Source: a virus (Duplodnaviria > Heunggongvirae > Uroviricota > Caudoviricetes). From it: a stretch of DNA of 45,442 bases. Position 1 is the stretch's first letter. Every line of letters starts with the position of its first letter. Location of the stretch: positions 1 through 45,442 of the IMG/VR virus record IMGVR_UViG_2534681703_000014. One strand, given 5' to 3'. The notes beneath the pieces are model-generated. The model was not told where the DNA came from. It saw nothing but the letters and a program-made list of their open reading frames with translations, and made no database searches. Position numbers and translations under genes: made by a program. Positions 286 to 44,875 of this stretch are shown one piece after another.

Positions 286-1404
286 TCAAATAACCAACTT
301 AACCCATTCCTGACCTCGAGTATCGTTATAGCGATCGGTGGTTGCCTGGACTTTATGCCCTAGTAATGTTTTTGTATCGATACCCTGTGCACGGTACAGC
401 CGTTCTGATAGAGAGCGTTGTTCATGAAATGTTGGCGGAGTTTTTCCTGCTGGTGGAATTATCCCAGCCAGATCCCGTGCTTTGGCAAAGTAGTCGCTCA
501 GGTTGTCTTTACTCATCGGCTTCGGTTGTTTCTGGTGCCGACTATGGATTAGATATGGACTTAATATTCTGTCTCGGCACCCATCAATAACTTCTTTTAA
601 CGTTATCCCAATGGCATCACAGCGTAGTGTAAGCGGTAACGCCAGACGCATTCCGGTTTTTCCCTGGGTGATATGCAAGTGTTCGTTCCACACATCTGAA
701 AAACGCATGTGGCAAATGTCATCACGGCGCTGACCAGTAACAATCGCAAGAAGCATTGCGTTACGGATAAAGTGTTTTTCAGGCGTTGCATTGTAAATTT
801 TTTGCCAGTCTTCCATGGTGAGCCTGGCTCTGGTTACTTTAGGGATCGGTTTACGGGTAGCCTCCGGAGGATTCCATCCAGGAGGAACTTCCCCTGCATG
901 CTGTGCTTCTTTATAAATATCAACCCATAATCCACGATTTACTCTCGCTGTGCTGACCATGTCTTTATCCAGCCACTCATCCAGTATTAATGCAAAGTCT
1001 CTTACTTCCAGTTCTTTCAATGGGTGGTTTCCCAGACGGGAAACCAGGTATGCAGCCATTCGAGTTTTTTCTTTGTGAGTTGTAGCTGCAATATCTCCAT
1101 TTTTCAGTCGCGCGTCCTGTATTTTCAGATATCGATCAACCCATGCCTTTAATCTGATGCCCCGACGTTTTGTTGCTGACGGACTTTCATCAATTTTGCG
1201 CATGAAATATTCAGCTTCTGCTGCAGCTATTCGCTGATTGGCTGTGGAAGCGATTTTTTCTGCTTTGCCTTTGTCTGTTCCGAGACCGTGAAATTTTCCA
1301 GTCACAGGGTTTTTATACTGGTAGTAAACCCTGCCAGTTCTGCGATCAAACTTTTCGTAAAGACCGGTTACGTCAGTGCTGTTTTTTCGTGGCCTCGGTG
1401 ACAT
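286..1404 (-). CDS. int: Tyrosine-type site-specific integrase (lambda Int family)
   Basis: 372-aa ORF at prophage end, beside the repeat; C-terminal region with R...HxxR...Y-type catalytic layout typical of phage integrases; AAGGAG SD 10 nt upstream of ATG. Confidence 0.9.
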   Translation of the reverse strand: MSPRPRKNSTDVTGLYEKFDRRTGRVYYQYKNPVTGKFHGLGTDKGKAEKIASTANQRIAAAEAEYFMRKIDESPSATKRRGIRLKAWVDRYLKIQDARLKNGDIAATTHKEKTRMAAYLVSRLGNHPLKELEVRDFALILDEWLDKDMVSTARVNRGLWVDIYKEAQHAGEVPPGWNPPEATRKPIPKVTRARLTMEDWQKIYNATPEKHFIRNAMLLAIVTGQRRDDICHMRFSDVWNEHLHITQGKTGMRLALPLTLRCDAIGITLKEVIDGCRDRILSPYLIHSRHQKQPKPMSKDNLSDYFAKARDLAGIIPPAGKTPPTFHEQRSLSERLYRAQGIDTKTLLGHKVQATTDRYNDTRGQEWVKLVI

Positions 1405-1642
1405 GAGTTAAAATCTCCTTCAGTGCATCATCATCGCCAGTATGAATTTCCGGCGCAATTCCCGTTTCACCAGGTCCAACAAATACTGCCCGGCGATCTA
1501 TCAGCCAACGCCCACGAATTTTTTGTGGTCTTGGAACGATGTATCCTAGTTTTCCGTATTTCACCAGGGTAGTGTTTGTTATTGGGAGACTGAACCGTTT
1601 TGGTTTCCACTCGTCGAGCGTTATCAGGTACTGTTCGCTCAT
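1373..1642 (-). CDS. xis: Excisionase (Xis-like)
   Basis: 89-aa ORF immediately upstream of and overlapping int; N-terminus YLITLDEW resembles lambda Xis YLTLQEW; GGAG SD before ATG at 1642. Confidence 0.7.
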   Translation of the reverse strand: MSEQYLITLDEWKPKRFSLPITNTTLVKYGKLGYIVPRPQKIRGRWLIDRRAVFVGPGETGIAPEIHTGDDDALKEILTHVTEATKKQH

Positions 1643-1703
1643 GGCTATCACTCCGGAACGCGCCAGTTGCAGAATACCAACGACAACTGGCGACGGTTGA
1701 ACA

Positions 1704-4175
1704 TTAAAAATCAGCCTGACTCGGGATCAGTTTTTGCCAGATAGCTGAAACGTATTTTGCCTGGTAACGAGCGTCATCAAGTGCATTATGGCGCTCACCT
1801 TCGAATGGGATAGCAGTTCTGGCATCGAAGTCTATGGCTTTCCCCAGCTCAACGATTGTGCGTACATCGCGATCGTTGTAGTAACGCCACGGGCAGGGGA
1901 TCCCCTGCCGCTCGTATGAACGGCGCAAAATAGTGTTGTCGAAGTTGGCTCCATTTCCCCAGACCTGAACAAAAAATTCACCGGAGTTTTCGTCGATAAA
2001 TTCCCGCAATTGTAACAGTGCATCATCTAACGGGATTTCATCGGTCATAATGGCAGATTGCGCTTCGCGTGATTGTTTAAGCCACCATTTAATGGTGTCC
2101 CGATCAATGACTCCGCCAGCAGTTTCCAGATCGATAGTCTTACTAAATTCCGGTCCCATATCTCCGGTTTGCGGATCGAAAAATATTGCACCTATTGAGA
2201 TAATCGGGGCATCGGGATTTTTTCCCATGGTTTCAAGGTCGATCATCAGATGAATCCCCGCTCTGCTGGTGGATGTGAGATTATGATGACCGTTCGCCTT
2301 AATTAAGGGATCTGACGCCTCGCCAGTTTCACTATCGCTGGCATGATGCTGATTGCCGCCAGTGTTCTCCTTGTGCTGATGCGCAGTGCCTTCCATTTCC
2401 TCCGGATCATTTTCCTGAACTTCAGGCTGATTCTCTCCATCGAATATTTCCTGGTATGTTGCGTCACCCATCACCGCACCACAATCAGGGCAGTTGCCGC
2501 CACCGCTCTGACCGCAGGCGGTGCAGATCTTTTCCGGTTCCTGTTGCACTACTGGTTCAGGTTGTTTCGTTTCTGGCTCGTTTTGTTGCGTATTTTGGCT
2601 GTTTTGTTCCGCTTTCTGGTCGTTCTGTTCCGTTTCTTGCTGGTTCTGGTTCGCAGAATCGCGGGTCTGGATCCCCTTAACCCATTTCGGATCATTCGGG
2701 TCGCTAATCCCTTCAACAAATTCACCACGTGATACTGCAAGCAGTTCATCGGCGTCAGGCTGGCTGATATTGGCTGCCTGCATAATTTTGTTTACTTCGT
2801 CAGCGGTAACTTTTACCGGTTCTGGCTGTGCGGTCGTGTCAGATGCACCAGTATTTTGTTGTGAACCTGAGTATGTACCGTTTTTGCGGGCGAAATATTC
2901 TTCTTTCGTGATTTCAGTAGCCCCTGCAGCCAGTGCCTTATCCAGACCAGAAAGTTTGTTTGCGCGACCGTATTTTTCGCCATCCTTGTCGGTGAAGAGG
3001 AAGTAGAACGGCCCCTCACGCTCTACAGATGGTTCGACTTCCACTTTGCATTCGGTTTTTTCGTTGTCCGGAATTGCCGTTTCCACTGCATCAGTTTCTG
3101 GTACTGGCGACGAGAGAGTATCAGTTGCGCTCTGATTTGTTCCTTCATCTTCAAACACGCCCTTTGTAGTCAGGTATTCAGTAATGTATTTGTTCAGTGC
3201 CACAGGATCTTTGTGAATGTCGATCGGACGTCCACGGACAAGGCCAAAAATAGTCTGGCGGTCGTAGCGAAGGGCATCAGGCTGTTTGCGCATCGATGCC
3301 GAGATACGCTTCCAGTCTTCGCGGTCGTTGTCGATAACTTCATTTTTTGCCCAGCGATGGATGCTGCCGTCAATGTTTCCGGCATCCACATCACCAGGCC
3401 AGAGAGCGTAGGCCAGTTCGTCATCCAGTGTTTTCCATGTCTGCTTGTATTCGCGATGAATGACTGCAGTGACAGGGGAGATATTTTCTGCTGAGTTTTC
3501 AGTGTGCTGTCGGTTGACTCTGGCGCGGGCGAGATCAACAGCAGACGTGTATTTTCCGGTTTCCTTGCGTTCACCTTCGCGACGTTTTTTCCAGATGCGC
3601 ATCTCTGCCTGAATTTCGGGCCATTTAGCTCCAGGCTTACATTTATGCTTAACCCACCCGATGGCATGCAACTTAAGTTCTGGATACATGGCGTTAACTT
3701 CTGGCATTTTCATCAACGCTTCAACGATATGTCCGTCGAATGTTGCCATGTCTTCCTGCAACAATTCCTGCGCGCTAATCACCATATCAACGGTGATGTT
3801 TTCACATGTGTCGAACTTAACCATGACAGCGTTCTGTACTTCAGGGGCCAGCTTGTCAAAAGTGACGTTCATCGGATCTGATTCAGTCTCAACCGGGACA
3901 AAGGAAGCAGACTCCTCATCCCAGCGGTTTTCCTGCATATATTCAGCATCCCAGGAATCGAGGGCAGGGCGGGGTATACCGGGTTTATCCTCGCAAACAA
4001 GAAATTTATAAGCGCAGTCCTGAGCAGCCGGATATTGCTCCAGGAATTGCCAGGTAAATTTGGCACGGGCGCGGCGTTCGTCACCGGCTTCAATGGCAGT
4101 GGCTACAGCAACTGCACCTTCTTCCTTTATTGCCTGTTCGTCCGGAATGGCAGCGCAAATAAAGACTTTACTCAT
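1704..4175 (-). CDS. Prophage exonuclease, 823 aa, with C-terminal DnaQ-like (DEDDh) 3'-5' exonuclease domain
   Basis: C-terminal motifs MIDLETMG ... HNALDDA fit the DnaQ/RNase T fold; central Q/N/E-rich low-complexity linker; position matches the exo slot of lambdoid early-left operons. Confidence 0.8.
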   Translation of the reverse strand: MSKVFICAAIPDEQAIKEEGAVAVATAIEAGDERRARAKFTWQFLEQYPAAQDCAYKFLVCEDKPGIPRPALDSWDAEYMQENRWDEESASFVPVETESDPMNVTFDKLAPEVQNAVMVKFDTCENITVDMVISAQELLQEDMATFDGHIVEALMKMPEVNAMYPELKLHAIGWVKHKCKPGAKWPEIQAEMRIWKKRREGERKETGKYTSAVDLARARVNRQHTENSAENISPVTAVIHREYKQTWKTLDDELAYALWPGDVDAGNIDGSIHRWAKNEVIDNDREDWKRISASMRKQPDALRYDRQTIFGLVRGRPIDIHKDPVALNKYITEYLTTKGVFEDEGTNQSATDTLSSPVPETDAVETAIPDNEKTECKVEVEPSVEREGPFYFLFTDKDGEKYGRANKLSGLDKALAAGATEITKEEYFARKNGTYSGSQQNTGASDTTAQPEPVKVTADEVNKIMQAANISQPDADELLAVSRGEFVEGISDPNDPKWVKGIQTRDSANQNQQETEQNDQKAEQNSQNTQQNEPETKQPEPVVQQEPEKICTACGQSGGGNCPDCGAVMGDATYQEIFDGENQPEVQENDPEEMEGTAHQHKENTGGNQHHASDSETGEASDPLIKANGHHNLTSTSRAGIHLMIDLETMGKNPDAPIISIGAIFFDPQTGDMGPEFSKTIDLETAGGVIDRDTIKWWLKQSREAQSAIMTDEIPLDDALLQLREFIDENSGEFFVQVWGNGANFDNTILRRSYERQGIPCPWRYYNDRDVRTIVELGKAIDFDARTAIPFEGERHNALDDARYQAKYVSAIWQKLIPSQADF

Positions 4176-4254
4176 TTTGTTTTACCTCATTACAGATTTA
4201 AGGGTGAACAAATCCCTGCCATTGCTGGCATATAAAAATGAAACTGGATATTAA

Positions 4255-4458
4255 TTACGGCGCTGTTTTTAATCCTGCCGGGATTTCGTTATTATCCATG
4301 CGAATAACTTTCTCGACCAGATAACAGTTACCAGGAATTTTCTGTTCTGCTGCGGCAGCCATACATTCTTTCATTGAACCATATATACCAGTAACCACAT
4401 CAACAGGTTCGCCAGTATTAAGAAAAACAGTCAGAGTGAGGGCAACAGCAGTCTTCAT
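4255..4458 (-). CDS. Hypothetical small early protein (67 aa)
   Basis: ORF in the early-left operon; ATGA start/stop overlap with upstream ORF suggests translational coupling; no recognised domain. Confidence 0.4.
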   Translation of the reverse strand: MKTAVALTLTVFLNTGEPVDVVTGIYGSMKECMAAAAEQKIPGNCYLVEKVIRMDNNEIPAGLKTAP

Positions 4459-4748
4459 TGCCAGCGTCCTTTTTGCATCAGGCGTAAACGGGCCAGCATT
4501 GAAACAATGCATATTTTATTTAATAACTCCCGTTCGTGTTTTCTCTTGTTAATGGCATCTTCAGTAAATACAGGGTTACTGATAGTGACACCAATTTCAA
4601 AACAACCTTCAGACGTATTAACGTTTGGTAATAACGTTTCCATTATCGCGTCCTCAACAATGAATTTTGTGATGCGGTGCCTGGTGCCTCCAGGTGACGT
4701 TAACCAGTTAACAATTAACGCCGGATACAGAGAATCCACCCATAACAC
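4455..4748 (-). CDS. Hypothetical early protein
   Basis: ORF co-oriented with the early-left operon; start codon uncertain. Confidence 0.4.
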   Translation of the reverse strand: MLWVDSLYPALIVNWLTSPGGTRHRITKFIVEDAIMETLLPNVNTSEGCFEIGVTISNPVFTEDAINKRKHERELLNKICIVSMLARLRLMQKGRWQ

Positions 4749-5204
4749 TGTTTTTGGTTTTAACTGTTCCGCGTGCGCTTAGCCGCATTCACCGCATCAC
4801 AAAATTCACTTTAAAAAGGGCGGCAGAGCAGTCACGGAGTAAAACTGATACCGCTAAACGCCACCAGAAAATTGATAACAGAGGGCGTTGCAGCGGGGTT
4901 GTCACTTAAGCGTATGGTCAACCTGACAACCCGGTGTCCTCAACGGGGAAGGAATAACCCCGCCATACTTACCGCCGCGCCATTTCGCGGATTGCCACAA
5001 CCGGAAGCGCACGGTCGACGAAAATTTAACGACAGGCTATCTATGAACCAGCAACCTCGCCGTGCGCTTTCGCGTTATGCTCTGACTTTTCAGAGAAATA
5101 TCCTTTCAGTAAACTGTCAGTACCGGATGCTCACCCGTGTCCGGCGCACGCACTCCACCTCACCCGTGGAGAACTCCTTAAGTACCAACCCTCAGGATGG
5201 TGAA

Positions 5205-5426
5205 ATGACTAGTAAAAATGTAAATATCCAGTTTAACCACGATGTTTCTCCTGCCGGACTTGCGGATGAACTCACTGCTATAAAAACAGCAATTATGCTA
5301 CTTGTTGCTAAGTTGCCAGCAGCATCACAACCATCAGATATTTGTGACTCATTACGTAAGATGAATTCAACAAAATGCAACGAGATGGCATCACTTATTG
5401 AAATAGCTATTGATTTTAATGATTAA
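5205..5426 (+). CDS. Hypothetical small protein (73 aa) encoded opposite to the early-left operon
   Basis: ATG at 5205 with upstream GGATGGTGA; 3' end overlaps by 11 nt the convergent minus-strand gene; the upstream part of the listed 184-aa ORF looks non-coding. Confidence 0.3.
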   Translation: MTSKNVNIQFNHDVSPAGLADELTAIKTAIMLLVAKLPAASQPSDICDSLRKMNSTKCNEMASLIEIAIDFND

Positions 5427-5790
5427 TCGAAATCTCATGGCTAACTGTAACACTCCCGTCTGTGGCGGGATGCTTTAAATCACAGGAGTTAACGCTTTTT
5501 GTTGCAAAGTAATTTTCAAGGGGGTCTATTCGAATCCCTTTCTTTTTCATTAACAAGCCAAACCCCTTATCAATGATGTCCATTAGATCCAGGAAGTATT
5601 TTTTATGTAAATCCTGGTTATCAGAGAGCTGCTTCTCTTCGTACAGACCGATAAAGGCACGACGCACGTTACCGGATATAGTATAGATGGTTTCTTTTTC
5701 TACGGTACTCAGGTCAAGAGTCGCCAGTTGGGAACGAACTATATTCGCTGCCATTTCCTGGAATTGCATTGGTAAATCTTTAAATTCCAT
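5416..5790 (-). CDS. Hypothetical early protein (124 aa)
   Basis: ORF in the early-left operon; no recognised motif. Confidence 0.5.
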   Translation of the reverse strand: MEFKDLPMQFQEMAANIVRSQLATLDLSTVEKETIYTISGNVRRAFIGLYEEKQLSDNQDLHKKYFLDLMDIIDKGFGLLMKKKGIRIDPLENYFATKSVNSCDLKHPATDGSVTVSHEISINH

Positions 5791-5812
5791 TATTAGCCTC
5801 GTTGGTTAGCTA

Positions 5813-6031
5813 TTAACGTGGGTATGTAATCATTCTGGCAATGCTTAATGCCGCTGCTTTTTCCAGCCTGGTGATATCCTGCTCCAGAGCGGACAGATTT
5901 TCAGCCTGCTTAGCCCTGGCTTCATTGGCCCATTTCAGATCCTGCGCTGCATTAATTTTCTGGCGCATCCACTCATAAAGTTCATCATCGGTATAGTCTT
6001 GTGCGATGATGACGGGTTCTCGTTTCTGCAT
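5813..6031 (-). CDS. Hypothetical early protein (72 aa), coiled-coil-like
   Basis: ORF in the early-left operon. Confidence 0.45.
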   Translation of the reverse strand: MQKREPVIIAQDYTDDELYEWMRQKINAAQDLKWANEARAKQAENLSALEQDITRLEKAAALSIARMITYPR

Positions 6032-6060
6032 ACTGATTCCTCGCGGTGCTGTTTCGCTTA

Positions 6061-6189
6061 TCAGCCGTTAGATTTTGCGGAACTGGAAAGCGCCTGTTTA
6101 AATTCGTTGAAGCTGAGAGCTTCTTCGCCTTCGGCAAGACCTTCGAAGTATTCTTCGTAAGCCTTTTCCATGATTGTGTCGAAATCCAT
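6061..6189 (-). CDS. Hypothetical small acidic protein (42 aa)
   Basis: Not in the ORF track (under 60 aa); ATG at 6189 lies 1 nt from the stop of the upstream gene (TGAGTGATATGG), suggesting coupling; translation MDFDTIMEKAYEEYFEGLAEGEEALSFNEFKQALSSSAKSNG. Confidence 0.3.
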   Translation of the reverse strand: MDFDTIMEKAYEEYFEGLAEGEEALSFNEFKQALSSSAKSNG

Positions 6190-6190
6190 A

Positions 6191-6427
6191 TCACTCACCT
6201 GAGTTTCTTTCCAGCCAGCGACGGGCACCATTTTCGGTTTTAAACGTTTTGCTTTTGGTATACGTCATCGCGGTGAACGTACCGTCCTGGTTGGGGAACA
6301 CGCCACATACCAGAGATTCGCTGTTGCCAAGATCGATAGTATCCATGCTGACCTCATTTCCCCTTAACGCCGGGGTAGCGGAACAAAAACCTGCTGCATA
6401 GTTATTAAAGTTGAACCCTGCCGTCAT
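6191..6427 (-). CDS. Hypothetical early protein (78 aa)
   Basis: First ORF downstream of the putative pL region at 6428-6637. Confidence 0.45.
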   Translation of the reverse strand: MTAGFNFNNYAAGFCSATPALRGNEVSMDTIDLGNSESLVCGVFPNQDGTFTAMTYTKSKTFKTENGARRWLERNSGE

Positions 6428-6637: not shown

Positions 6638-6916
6638 TTAGGGAAACTGGCGTCTTGCGTGGATCACGTTTACTACTTCAACGCTTGATGTTGTTACGCG
6701 GTATAGAATTATATAGTTAGGGTGGGCTACAATCTCACGCAAGCCAGGTACTCTGTCGCTTGGTGGGTATAAATACGGATGTTCGGATAACGGCAGCACA
6801 CAACCCCTTAATCGCTGCCATAAGCGTTCAGCCGCATCTATGTCGAAACGAGCAATATAACTAGTTATATCATCTAGGTCGGTATCTGCGCTTTCAAGCC
6901 ATAACACGGGTAACAT
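6638..6916 (-). CDS. Type II toxin, RelE/ParE superfamily (92 aa from internal ATG)
   Basis: Size, basic C-terminus (...NVIHARRQFP) and pairing with an upstream small RHH-like antitoxin ORF whose stop is 1 nt from this start; family call from remembered ParE-like sequences. Confidence 0.65.
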   Translation of the reverse strand: MLPVLWLESADTDLDDITSYIARFDIDAAERLWQRLRGCVLPLSEHPYLYPPSDRVPGLREIVAHPNYIILYRVTTSSVEVVNVIHARRQFP

Positions 6917-6917
6917 T

Positions 6918-7109
6918 TTACTGCTTGCTCCGTTCCTTGCGCATTTTAGCAAAGCGTTCTGCCATTCTGCGCTCAACTTCGTCATGGGGAATTGCTGGGC
7001 GTGGATCTGCAAGGCTCGTTGCTACTTTTGCACGCAGCCATTCGTTGTAACTGTTTTCTTGTTCAATGGTTTCAAATTCAGAAACCATTGGTGAAAGGGC
7101 TCTATTCAT
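6918..7109 (-). CDS. Type II antitoxin, ParD-like (63 aa)
   Basis: Small ORF MNRALSPMVSEFETIEQENSYNEWLRAKVATSLADPRPAIPHDEVERRMAERFAKMRKERSKQ with strong GGAGG SD; immediately precedes the ParE-like ORF. Confidence 0.6.
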   Translation of the reverse strand: MNRALSPMVSEFETIEQENSYNEWLRAKVATSLADPRPAIPHDEVERRMAERFAKMRKERSKQ

Positions 7110-7129
7110 GTTTCCTCCGGTTTTATAAC

Positions 7130-7501
7130 TCAGGCGCGGCGGCATTTTTGCGCCGCAATCCATCTCGCTATGAGATCTTCCATTGATTCTTTTTTCTGCT
7201 TTAACTCGCTGATTATCTGGCGTTGCTCATCCTCAGGGAAGGCTGAAAAAATCTGCAATAATTCCAGTTGATTAGACGTTAACCCTGCATGTGGTGGAGA
7301 AACCTCCGGTTGTTCTGCGTATTCCGCATCCAGATACCCTTCCGGCATCCCGTATGTTTGCTCTATTCTTCTGGCAGCCTTTTCTCCAAACGAGGCTCTC
7401 CCACTCATTAGTTGAGATAGGTAGCTCTTCTCTTTGGGTGGCAGAGTTTTATCTTTAAACCACTCCTTGAGACGTAAACGGCGAATTTCTTTTTTTTGCA
7501 T
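7130..7501 (-). CDS. Prophage repressor, short HTH (XRE-like) protein without a peptidase domain (123 aa)
   Basis: HTH-like segment SYLSQLMSGRASFGEKAARRIEQTYG; divergent from a Cro-like gene across a 98-bp operator region. Confidence 0.65.
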   Translation of the reverse strand: MQKKEIRRLRLKEWFKDKTLPPKEKSYLSQLMSGRASFGEKAARRIEQTYGMPEGYLDAEYAEQPEVSPPHAGLTSNQLELLQIFSAFPEDEQRQIISELKQKKESMEDLIARWIAAQKCRRA

Positions 7502-7599
7502 GTGGTAATTATCTTTAGTAATCACTAAACAAGCAAATACTTGACTTAATGGTTTATTAAACACTAAACTCTCAAAAAAAACACTAAACCGAGGAAGGT
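7502..7599. promoter_or_regulatory. Divergent promoter/operator region (OR-like) with three CACTAAAC repeats and a TTGACT -35-like hexamer
   Basis: CACTAAAC at 7523-7530, 7562-7569 and 7582-7589; TTGACT followed about 18 nt later by TAAACT upstream of the cro-like start. Confidence 0.55.
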
Positions 7600-7902
7600 A
7601 TGACATTAAAAGAGTTTATTAAATCATTGAGGGTTGGTGATGCTAAGAAATTCGCAGCCAGACTTGGTGTATCGCCATCTTACTTATCGCAAATGGCGTC
7701 TGGACGAGCAGCTATATCTCCAACACGCGCCCTTATGATCGAATCTGCGACGGAAGGCCAAGTAAGTAGGGCGGAGCTACGACCCCATGATTGGGAGCTT
7801 ATTTGGCCTGAGTATGCGAGCGGCATTCGTTTGGGGCAAACACATGTAGTTCATGCTGAAGGTGATTGTAGTGCATGCTTATCTGATGGAGTTGATTCAT
7901 GA
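7600..7902 (+). CDS. Cro/YdaS-like HTH regulator (100 aa)
   Basis: HTH-like segment KKFAARLGVSPSYLSQMASGRAAISP; first rightward gene after the operator, as in Rac-type immunity regions. Confidence 0.7.
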   Translation: MTLKEFIKSLRVGDAKKFAARLGVSPSYLSQMASGRAAISPTRALMIESATEGQVSRAELRPHDWELIWPEYASGIRLGQTHVVHAEGDCSACLSDGVDS

Positions 7903-11679: not shown

Positions 11680-12366
11680 ATGACCACAATAAATACGTTT
11701 ATGACAGTTGCTGATTTCAAACGGCCTAAATTGGAGCTCCCAAACGGGGCAAACAAACTACTACTGCACTCTTGCTGTGCTCCATGTTCCGGTGAAGTGA
11801 TGGAGGCGCTTCAGGCCTCGGGAATCGACTACACCATCTTTTTCTACAACCCGAACATTCATCCTCAGAAAGAGTATTTAATTCGTAAGGATGAGAATAT
11901 TCGCTTTGCTGAACAACACGGCGTGCAGTTTATCGATGCTGATTACGACACAGACAACTGGTTTGAACGTGCCAAAGGAATGGAATGGGAGCCCGAGAGG
12001 GGGATCCGTTGTACCATGTGTTTTGACATGCGTTTTGAGCGGACAGCGTTGTACGCTGCTGAAAATGGTTTCAGTGTGATCAGCAGTTCGCTGGGCATTT
12101 CACGCTGGAAAAATATGCAGCAGGTTAACGACTGTGGGCGGCGAGCCGTCGCGCATTATCCGGGAATGGTGTACTGGGATTATAACTGGCGCAAGCAGGG
12201 CGGCTCGTCCCGTATGATTGAAATCAGCAAGCGCGAAAAATTCTATCAGCAGGAATATTGTGGCTGTGTGTATTCTCTGCGCGATACCAATCTACACCGC
12301 AAATCTCAGGGACGCCCTCTTATCAAAATTGGTCAACTCCACTACGGTAAAGAAGAGAAGGAGTGA
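11680..12366 (+). CDS. queH: Epoxyqueuosine reductase QueH family (DUF208)
   Basis: N-terminal [11 protein letters not shown] and later CGCVYS motifs match the QueH/DUF208 Cys signature as I recall it; 228 aa. Confidence 0.7.
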
Positions 12367-12602
12367 TTTTATGGATCACCTTTCTGATTGATTTCATATT
12401 GGCGAGGTAGCAGGAGTTAAGTAGAATTGCTGCGGGTGCTTGAGGCTATCTGTCTCAGGCATGAACACCAAAAGGCAGATAGAGAAAAGCCCCAGTTAAC
12501 ATTACGCGTCCTGCAAGACGCTTAACATTAATCTGAGGCCATATCTATGCGACACATAGAGATTAGCCTCTTACGGACCGAAAGGTCAAGGAGAAGCAGG
12601 CT

Positions 12603-12758
12603 ATGAAGCAGCGAAAGGCGATGTTAATCGCCCTGATCGTCATCTGTTTAACCGTCATAGTGACGGCACTGGTAACGAGGAAAGACCTCTGCGAGGTACG
12701 AATCCGAACCGGCCAGACGGAGGTCGCTGTCTTCACAGCTTACGAACCTGAGGAGTAA
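12603..12758 (+). CDS. hok: Hok/Gef-family type I toxin (51 aa)
   Basis: Translation MKQRKAMLIALIVICLTVIVTALVTRKDLCEVRIRTGQTEVAVFTAYEPEE aligns by eye with Hok ([52 protein letters not shown]); not in the ORF track (under 60 aa). Confidence 0.7.
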   Translation: MKQRKAMLIALIVICLTVIVTALVTRKDLCEVRIRTGQTEVAVFTAYEPEE

Positions 12759-16766: not shown

Positions 16767-16842
16767 GGCCCTTTAGCTCAGTGGTGAGAGCGAGCGACTC
16801 ATAATCGCCAGGTCGCTGGTTCAAATCCAGCAAGGGCCACCA
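16767..16842 (+). tRNA. tRNA with CAU anticodon, resembling E. coli tRNA-Ile2 (ileX-like); Met cannot be excluded
   Basis: Manual cloverleaf: acceptor GGCCCTT/AAGGGCC, D-arm GCTC..GAGC, anticodon loop CTCATAA, T-arm GCTGG-TTCAAAT-CCAGC, 3' ACCA. Confidence 0.85.
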
Positions 16843-16843
16843 A

Positions 16844-16920
16844 CCGCCACTAGCTCATCAGGAAAGAGCGTCAACCCTTTAAGTTGAGTGTGCGAGGTTC
16901 GAGTCCCCGGTGGCGGTCCA
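16844..16920 (+). tRNA. Atypical tRNA-like gene, apparent anticodon UUU (Lys) with C33 and U73
   Basis: Acceptor CCGCCAC/GTGGCGG, D-arm GCTC..GAGC, anticodon stem TCAAC/GTTGA with loop CCTTTAA, T-loop TTCGAGT with one stem mismatch, 3' TCCA. Confidence 0.5.
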
Positions 16921-16922
16921 GT

Positions 16923-16998
<76 letters not shown>

Positions 16999-17001
16999 TA
17001 T

Positions 17002-17076
<75 letters not shown>

Positions 17077-44206: not shown

Positions 44207-44875
44207 CTATTTTTTCCCTGAAGCGGAAAACATTACTACAGTACCTTGAACCTTGGTTTTAACATTCTCGAAATGCTCTGAGAGTATATGCGTTAAGCCT
44301 TCTTCGGAATCTTTTGTGTTTGAAAAGATGCCTTTCTGATTGTAAATGCGCATCAGTTTTTGACCGAAGCTATTGTGCACAACTCCATCGCCAAGAATTG
44401 TGGCTCCGTATAGAGTTCCATCGTCAGTTAAGGCCTGCGCCGCATTGCGTATTACACAGCTTTTTGTAGATATATTTCCAGGCAGGCAGTGAAGAAGGTA
44501 AAACATGGAAATGGAATCAAATTGACCATGTAACGCCGCGGGATAAGGTTCAAAAACATCATGGCTAATTTTATGTTTAATTTTTGATTCCCCAGCCCTT
44601 GTAGATGCCGCGTTCAGGCTAGCTTCGTTCAAATCCATTAAAGATATCAGACTACTCTCAGGTACGTGAGTAAGGTAAAACCCAGTTCCAACACCAATAT
44701 CCAGATGGTTGTTACCTAAATGTTCCAGAAAGTGTGGAAGAAGGTATTCCTTTGTAGGACATCCCCATGCAAGCCGATTTGATACTCCCAAAACCCACCA
44801 GTCATAAAGCTTTAGGGTAAGTGGTGTGTAAATTTTAGCCCCATCATCTGTGTTTTTTTTCATTAATTTCACCAT
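44207..44875 (-). CDS. Class I SAM-dependent methyltransferase (222 aa), AT-rich cargo gene
   Basis: Motif I DIGVGTGFY (Gly-rich SAM-binding loop); low GC relative to flanking phage DNA. Confidence 0.7.
   Translation of the reverse strand: MVKLMKKNTDDGAKIYTPLTLKLYDWWVLGVSNRLAWGCPTKEYLLPHFLEHLGNNHLDIGVGTGFYLTHVPESSLISLMDLNEASLNAASTRAGESKIKHKISHDVFEPYPAALHGQFDSISMFYLLHCLPGNISTKSCVIRNAAQALTDDGTLYGATILGDGVVHNSFGQKLMRIYNQKGIFSNTKDSEEGLTHILSEHFENVKTKVQGTVVMFSASGKK

Follow-up and report, generated by a model that had tools for sequence, protein, structure and literature searches.

What does a lambdoid prophage do with its DNA ends when it carries an exonuclease gene and no recognisable annealase gene beside it? 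The question is raised by the viral record IMGVR_UViG_2534681703_000014 (Caudoviricetes), of which positions 1 to 45,442 were analysed here; this whole stretch of 45,442 nucleotides is hereafter called the window. An initial annotation, made from the letters of the window, had pointed out a large DnaQ-fold exonuclease gene, a description that held up; the gene occupies the slot where lambda and Rac hold exo/bet or recE/recT. Our preferred answer, to which we give a probability of roughly 0.55, is that the encoded protein of 823 amino acids (aa) is a DEDDh nuclease on a RecE-type scaffold, belongs to a recombination module of the Tritos type, and acts as an accessory end-processor in a phage relying on host RecBCD-Chi-RecA recombination. 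The region is the early-left operon of a lambdoid prophage of the Qin/DicB type, in which the exonuclease appears to be the sole recombination gene, with neither an annealase nor a RecBCD inhibitor recognised. The open reading frame (ORF) and its catalytic domain are located as follows.

1704..4175, minus strand: exonuclease ORF, ATG start, 823 aa (from the ORF list)
1737..2252, minus strand: DEDDh exonuclease domain, aa 642-813, PF16473, Rv2179c/DexA family

The C-terminal DEDDh-like domain that the initial annotation had read in the 823-aa ORF was confirmed by PF16473 (Rv2179c-like), which matched at E 3.6e-67, scored 225.9 bits where 27 is the cut-off, and covered positions 2-177 of the 177 in the profile, while the full-length PHROG match of the protein was phrog_2082, 'exonuclease'. 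A sequence search of the PDB up to E 1 returned no solved structures other than those of T4 DexA (8kel/8ken, E 1.4e-6); the match concerned the C-terminal domain alone, and the N-terminal region gave no solved structure in this search. Residues D646, E648, D746, H796, and D801 lined up with the catalytic residues of T4 DexA and were invariant in a four-way alignment, and the five DEDDh catalytic residues were nearly invariant among homologues. The domain is accordingly described here as a predicted 3'-5' exonuclease of the DexA/Rv2179c type of DEDDh enzymes. It shares the PF16473 subfamily with T4 DexA at ~27-28% identity; however, DexA is a stand-alone protein of 227 aa, whereas the window domain forms the C-terminus of a multidomain protein.

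The same family assignment brings in a different substrate. PF16473 is named for the 3'-5' exoribonuclease Rv2179c, and NCBI labels many homologues '3'-5' exoribonuclease'; an enzyme acting as Rv2179c and the nanoRNases do would break down RNA, short oligonucleotides, or nucleotide second messengers, for instance in nucleotide scavenging or in weakening a host defence signal. T4 DexA itself also acts in host-DNA scavenging, according to a report on DexA and its relatives (PMC12153337). We regard an RNA- or nucleotide-directed role as quite improbable, since the sole PDB match was DexA, a DNA exonuclease, Rv2179c was not matched, and both the position of the gene and its fusion partners point to DNA-end transactions.

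What precedes the nuclease domain sets the protein apart from DexA. The N-terminal 640 aa are a scaffold of YdfE/RecE type, comprising three folded domains, disordered linkers, a variable heptad linker, and a zinc ribbon.

3564..4175, minus strand: domain D1, aa 1-204, Pfam YdfE_N type, alpha/beta fold
3144..3443, minus strand: domain D2, aa 245-344, helical, probably Pfam YdfE_C, predicted local distance difference test (pLDDT) score about 88-91
2871..3023, minus strand: mini-domain D3, aa 385-435, GPFYF...GRANK...EITKEEYFARKNG, pLDDT about 88-90
2301..2756, minus strand: RecE-shared segment, aa 474-625, with the SRGEFVEGISDPNDPKWV motif, heptad repeat, zinc ribbon, and acidic linker
2529..2654, minus strand: heptad (21-bp) Q/N/E-rich repeat linker, aa 508-549, predicted disordered
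2481..2525, minus strand: zinc-ribbon-like CxxC-x7-CxxC motif with four cysteines, C551, C554, C562, and C565

The RecE-shared segment matched K-12 RecE 453-591 at high identity (BLASTP E 1e-58), in a stretch that takes in the zinc ribbon and acidic linker along with the SRGEFVEGISDPNDPKWV motif, and at the nucleotide level window positions 2302-2751 matched K-12 recE at 76% over 453 nt (blastn). This similarity ended exactly at the nuclease-domain boundary. The D2 region matched RecE 278-351 at E 6e-4, the first 460 aa being just faintly RecE-like, and the NCBIfam RecE equivalog NF007259 matched aa 244-626 with 269 bits, under its cut-off of 1269. PF12684 had no match in the 823-aa protein, and the PD-(D/E)XK nuclease domain of RecE (RecE 596-866, used as a tblastn query) had none in the window. 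The protein is therefore not RecE, as the homology is confined to the central scaffold and another nuclease occupies the position of the RecE nuclease; rather, it appears to be the central scaffold of RecE joined to a nuclease of predicted opposite polarity. Rac RecE lies in the same genomic slot and has a central domain distantly related to D2, but its N-terminal head is PF06630 where the window protein has YdfE_N. Furthermore, RecE ends in a PD-(D/E)XK 5'-3' nuclease with recT next, whereas the window protein ends in a predicted DEDDh 3'-5' nuclease with no partner gene: no recT lay beside the exonuclease gene, and tblastn found no RecT match in the window.

An AlphaFold2 (AF2) model of the 823-aa protein, built from a 42-sequence alignment, showed three folded units with confidence (aa 1-204, 245-344, and 385-435) and low-confidence linkers between them, and predicted aa 436 to ~640 to be disordered except for the short zinc-ribbon-like motif. 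The DEDDh domain had low confidence in this full-length model, probably from an alignment that mixed relatives with other C-termini, and that part was left unused. D3 is nearly invariant across the family, with G388, P389, F390, Y391, G403, R404, A405, N406, and K407 as invariant columns in an alignment that included relatives at 28-38% identity. The zinc-ribbon cysteines were invariant or nearly so in close homologues and are kept in K-12 RecE, while the motif was absent in some DEDDh relatives (P0123, P0140). Located at aa 482-499 (window 2679-2732) within an otherwise disordered stretch, the SRGEFVEGISDPNDPKWV motif is conserved in RecE and more diverged but recognisable in a Rad52-type fusion (P0128, described below); it looks like a linear protein-interaction motif.

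A Q/N/E-rich repeat linker had been placed at about 2549-2680 by the initial annotation, which was approximately right: Tandem Repeats Finder reported 2562-2645 (period 21, 4.0 copies, 77% matches, score 94). In frame, the repeat encodes the degenerate heptads ANQNQQE / TEQNDQK / AEQNSQN / TQQNEPE / TKQPEPV / VQQEPEK, an expansion that K-12 RecE lacks. When copy number was compared among homologues it varied, proteins of 816, 823, 830, and 831 aa differing at this stretch by whole 7-aa units, and the copy-number variation is therefore real. Among 78 gap-free alleles, the ratio of nonsynonymous to synonymous substitution rates (dN/dS) was 0.07-0.16 in every folded unit, the zinc ribbon, the SRGEFVEGISDPNDPKWV motif, and the nuclease domain (D2 0.126; D3 0.069; zinc ribbon 0.132; DEDDh domain 0.155; segment aa 474-507 around SRGEFVEGISDPNDPKWV 0.12) and 0.67-0.78 in the linkers. 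The low values show that all of these modules are kept by selection.

RecE is normally paired with RecT, and lambda Exo with Bet. The window, together with 80 related viral loci and their 8-kb flanks, was searched for a partner gene. In tblastn, no match in the 45-kb window or in the 80 loci was obtained with lambda Bet/Exo/Gam, Rac RecT, the RecE nuclease domain, P22 Erf/Abc2, a Sak4-like ATPase, GamL, Gp157, or a Rad52-like domain. The neighbours and other early genes, scanned against Pfam, PHROG, and NCBIfam, likewise returned no annealase family, in agreement with the earlier statement that no RecT/Bet-like annealase is adjacent, and neither profile nor sequence searches found an annealase homologue among the operon ORFs or within aa 1-640. 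For the anti-RecBCD proteins Gam, GamL, and Abc2 there was no tblastn match in the window, and the Pfam and PHROG scans showed none of them either, within the sensitivity of sequence methods. No SSB family appeared in the Pfam and PHROG scans of the tested ORFs, SSB not being among the tblastn queries. The annealase-free arrangement of the exonuclease gene was kept in 78 of the 80 related loci.

The window ORF is the uninterrupted version of ydfE, a pseudogene of the Qin prophage in K-12. K-12 ydfE, the source of Pfam YdfE_N and YdfE_C, corresponds to aa 1-256 of the 823-aa protein at 93.75% identity and lies in the operon dicA, ydfABC, dicF, dicB, ydfD, ydfE, the same context as in the window. 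However, it is truncated by IS2 past residue 256 and hence without D2, D3, the linker, the zinc ribbon, and the nuclease, whereas the window gene is complete. The exonuclease gene is among the commonest E. coli prophage genes, being held at a coverage of at least 80%, and annotated "exonuclease", by 3534 of 5426 complete E. coli genomes; the intact gene also occurs in the isolated, viable phages Tritos, Evi, and mEp460_ev081. DLP12 exoD, considered as a C-terminal remnant of the exonuclease gene, gave no tblastn match and was rejected.

Tritos is the closest described counterpart. Its gp27 has 823 aa and is 89% identical to the window protein, and its gene order (int-xis-exo-ydfD-dicB-DicF-ydfC/B/A-repressor) is as in the window; Tritos differs in its integrase and excisionase and is without an insert of ~600 bp at 5191-5792, and nothing else of substance separates the two. 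In a 2025 Genome Res survey of 325 lambdoid phages, DnaQ-like 3'-5' nucleases are found in recombination modules, and the Tritos-prototype module (Table 1) consists of a nuclease without annealase, SSB, or anti-RecBCD, accompanied by 7-21 top-strand Chi sites (PMC12315714). The composition of the window is the same, and its top/bottom Chi count of 10/3 compares with published values of 21/6 to 7/2 for the Tritos type in the survey. This likeness, together with the Chi content, places the window in the known Tritos-type, nuclease-only class; the gene and its annealase-less arrangement were already described in 2025.

These comparisons also bear on the proposal of the initial annotation that the recombination module is incomplete. 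In its strongest form, the module would have decayed, the annealase (perhaps a Gam-type protein too) being lost and the exonuclease left over without a role. In favour of this, an annealase gene is missing from only 9 of the 246 phages in which the survey recognised genes of a recombination module (PMC12315714). We nevertheless consider decay very improbable: every folded module is under strong purifying selection, thousands of genomes keep an intact copy of the gene, viable Tritos, Evi, and mEp460_ev081 share the arrangement, and it is conserved across nearly all of the related loci. For the same reasons, and with a published module type of this composition at hand, "incomplete" is too strong a term. 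The better description, moderately likely, is that host RecBCD-Chi-RecA is used in place of an annealase of the phage's own.

Consistent with the use of the host pathway, Chi (GCTGGTGG) occurred 13 times in the window against 1.71 expected from shuffles, and 0 of 100 shuffles reached 13. Ten sites were on the plus strand, where the terminase, head, and tail genes also lie, and three on the minus strand; on the inferred virion map, 7 of the 10 plus-strand sites lie within the rightmost 45%.

449, 2265, 8159, 8204, 13425, 16680, 17797, 20979, 21508, 44050, plus strand: Chi sites
2265..2272, plus strand: Chi within the exonuclease gene

The excess is in the orientation that the 2025 survey treats as active (PMC12315714). 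According to the survey, phages that lack an anti-RecBCD function draw on host RecBCD and Chi for growth that depends on recombination, RecBCD-aided growth itself being shown there for phage LLS alone, which has no Rec module (PMC12315714). It is from the Chi content and this published correlation that we infer reliance on RecBCD-Chi-RecA. Under this scheme, it is moderately likely that the phage would not run a Red/RecET-style reaction of exonuclease plus annealase, and equally that host RecBCD-Chi-RecA recombination would supply its concatemers. The part played by the protein is more weakly indicated: the exonuclease might be an accessory end-processing enzyme, the scaffold might carry the nuclease to DNA ends, and the nuclease might there trim 3' single-stranded tails, the ends staying blunt enough for RecBCD loading. 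Host 3'-5' exonucleases have been proposed to trim 3' tails in such a way, keeping ends as RecBCD substrates.

To place the DEDDh version among its relatives, the scaffold (aa 1-473) was used in an exhaustive HMMER search, which gave 193 clusters, and 58 representatives of at least 450 aa were scored for known modules. The C-terminal effector was a third, Rad52-like domain in 21/58 representatives, a RecE-type PD-(D/E)XK nuclease in 10-11/58, a DEDDh domain in 9-10/58, and a fourth domain in 8-9/58; 8/58 had none. The heads YdfE_N and PF06630 each combined with all three identified effectors. The third domain had no Pfam family above threshold, and PDB searches by single sequence and by profile were empty. 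A fold search alone gave a Rad52-type match, and Pfam Rad52_Rad22 matched at E 0.004 on the motif KKSLTDAxKKALSxLGFSADVWLGLYD. NCBI names these fusions "exodeoxyribonuclease VIII"; the data suggest instead that many proteins called "exonuclease VIII" carry a Rad52/Sak-type annealase fold. In P0128 (Klebsiella aerogenes) and P0284 (Citrobacter koseri), the same scaffold (43% identity over aa 27-438, YdfE_N plus YdfE_C) lies in the same slot between kil and xis as the window gene, but the C-terminus has the Rad52/Sak-type fold and no nuclease, with GamL upstream. The Citrobacter gene has GamL and a Gp157-like gene on either side and is upstream of xis and int. The fourth domain, of ~230 aa, was seen in P0125, P0209, P0224, P0239, P0249, and P0261; it had no Pfam match, and phrog_26058 was its sole PHROG.

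The repeated fusion of this scaffold to recombination effectors argues that the DEDDh version, too, acts on DNA ends in recombination. Independent support for a recombination role comes from Salmonella phage epsilon34, where gp34 and the DEDDh domain share 57% identity (E 6e-72). Unlike the window protein, gp34 is a stand-alone 'DnaQ' nuclease of 182 aa; it is also encoded in the early-left operon, but between SSB and Abc2 and beside Erf, in a canonical Rec module, whereas the window domain has no such neighbours. A further stand-alone DEDDh homologue, of 189 aa and 58% identical, was found in Salmonella phage 118970_sal3 (locus L007, 5995-6564). It lies directly upstream of xis/int, so that the xis-side position recurs outside E. 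coli, and no annotated annealase was present near it.

Several points weigh against the reading of an accessory end-processor in a phage reliant on RecBCD. The end-blunting role is purely inferred, and we found no functional study of the 823-aa protein in the literature on ydfE, phage Rv2179c, and Qin/dicB exonucleases. With identities of 92-99%, the 80 related loci are closely related to one another and do not count as independent samples. The E. coli chromosome has about 1 Chi per 4.5 kb, and the density in the window is similar, which shows that Chi is not avoided, not that Chi is used. DicB excludes some phages, and the dic operon is one with exclusion functions. The 2025 survey notes that the usual effect of DnaQ-like 3'-5' exonucleases on homologous recombination is inhibition and not promotion (PMC12315714). 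Lastly, an E. coli DexA homologue and, judging by residue numbering, close relative of the nuclease domain, EcD (HREX; HAK9828821.1), is reported to cleave DNA containing 5-hydroxymethylcytosine (5hmC), and plasmid-expressed EcD to protect against T4 (PMC12153337).

The observations on DicB, encoded in the same operon, and on EcD also favour the main rival explanation, namely that the protein is an HREX-like nuclease of defence or superinfection exclusion that degrades the DNA of competing phages, for example cytosine-modified T-even phages, and has no role in the prophage's own recombination. The status of T4 DexA as sole solved-structure match by sequence fits this view, as does conserved D782, which aligns with DexA D169, an alignment that is uncertain at 27% identity. 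Other details speak against it. The 5hmC-reading W152 of DexA aligns, with the same uncertainty, to Y766, which varies (Y/S/H/C/T) in close homologues. EcD has lost the tetramer-interface residue D90, whose absence defines the defensive, dimer-only form of the EcD type in the same report (PMC12153337), whereas the window protein keeps it as the nearly invariant D718. EcD also appears to be stand-alone, judging by the residue numbering in that paper, whereas the window domain is fused. In addition, the gene lies within a repressed early-left prophage operon, its scaffold elsewhere bears RecE nuclease or Rad52-type annealase domains, the epsilon34 homologue sits inside a canonical Erf-SSB-Abc2 module, and PADLOC gave just a generic CRISPR-associated DEDDh match (E 1.8e-5). 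We therefore judge a purely defensive role to be unlikely.

A hidden annealase among the neighbouring genes, as suggested by the initial annotation, would restore a two-component system. In order of transcription, the operon comprises the repressor, a RelE/RelB pair, ydfA/ydfB/ydfC, a 124-aa ORF, DicF, dicB, ydfD, the exonuclease gene, xis, and int.

7130-7606: repressor gene
6638-7163, minus strand: RelE/ParE-type toxin paired with a RelB-type antitoxin, flanked by ydfA and the repressor gene
5813-6427: YdfC/YdfB/YdfA (YdfA is DUF1391)
5416-5790, minus strand: ORF124, 124 aa
4818..4869, minus strand: DicF small RNA, Rfam RF00039 at 68.6 bits (gathering score 48), between ydfC and dicB
4455..4643, minus strand: dicB, cell-division inhibitor, PF05358 at E 1.9e-38, aa 36-97 of the listed ORF
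4255..4458, minus strand: ydfD (DUF1482), PF07358 at E 3.9e-17, directly upstream of the exonuclease gene
1373..1651, minus strand: excisionase (xis), PF07825, phrog_629, downstream of the exonuclease gene
286..1404, minus strand: lambda-type integrase (int), PF09003 and PF00589, at the end of the early-left operon

The exonuclease gene had been described as followed in its operon only by small ORFs. As it lies on the minus strand and is transcribed leftward, the ORFs meant (4255-4748, 5416-6427) are upstream of it, and it is xis and int that follow. These ORFs resolved into YdfD, so annotated in K-12 and Tritos, DicB, the DicF RNA, YdfC/B/A, and ORF124. YdfA, YdfB, YdfC, and ORF124 are without known function, which leaves room for a cryptic annealase partnering the exonuclease. 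However, the neighbours encode 56-124 aa, against 205-269 aa for reference annealases, and none matched a Pfam, PHROG, or NCBIfam annealase. Only YdfD and DicB were consistently adjacent, in 78 of the 80 related loci, and their described functions are unrelated to recombination; YdfB and YdfC were present in 43-45/80 and ORF124 in 20/80. Given the negative scans and tblastn searches and the patchy distribution of ORF124, a hidden small annealase is not supported, and we hold it to be extremely improbable. ORF124 is also missing from phage Tritos and K-12 Qin: relative to both, the insert at 5191-5792 carries ORF124 and the end of a plus-strand ORF (phrog_7249). The toxin-antitoxin pair was found in just 7 of the 80 loci.

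Elsewhere in the window, a sok antitoxin RNA was detected at 12434-12605 (plus strand, 106.7 bits). A homologue of QueH (epoxyqueuosine reductase; PF02677, E 1.6e-65) at 11680-12366 on the plus strand lies a few kb upstream of a four-tRNA cluster at 16767-17073. Beyond the tail genes, a class I S-adenosylmethionine-dependent methyltransferase-like ORF at 44207-44875 (minus strand; PF08242 and related families) could be prophage cargo or flanking host DNA.

Taken beyond this prophage, the fusions raise a broader possibility that we put forward tentatively and with clearly less confidence than our preferred answer. The YdfE/RecE-type N-terminus may be a general platform of lambdoid prophages that delivers exchangeable effectors for DNA ends to a single shared partner or site; as part of the same tentative reading, the effectors may comprise a 5'-3' PD-(D/E)XK nuclease, a 3'-5' DEDDh nuclease, a Rad52-fold annealase, and the fourth domain. 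The large N-terminal part of RecE enhances linear-linear recombination (PMC11611040), and a common partner could explain that role. Were the platform real, the DEDDh version of the window would define an annealase-independent route of recombination coupled to host RecBCD and Chi, and hundreds of database 'exodeoxyribonuclease VIII' proteins would actually be annealases.

Beyond the description of 2025, the present analysis locates the junction with RecE exactly, maps the domains, profiles selection along the protein, and points out the Rad52-fold fusions; these additions are context rather than a new kind of system. The puzzle posed by the locus is that a 3'-5' exonuclease, of a class that usually suppresses recombination, is carried on a scaffold that elsewhere bears the 5'-3' nuclease of RecE or a Rad52-type annealase. 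An explanation of this, and of what the scaffold binds, would clarify the function of the RecE N-terminus, which is relevant to RecET direct cloning, and would correct a widespread misnaming of annealase fusions as 'exonuclease VIII' in databases.

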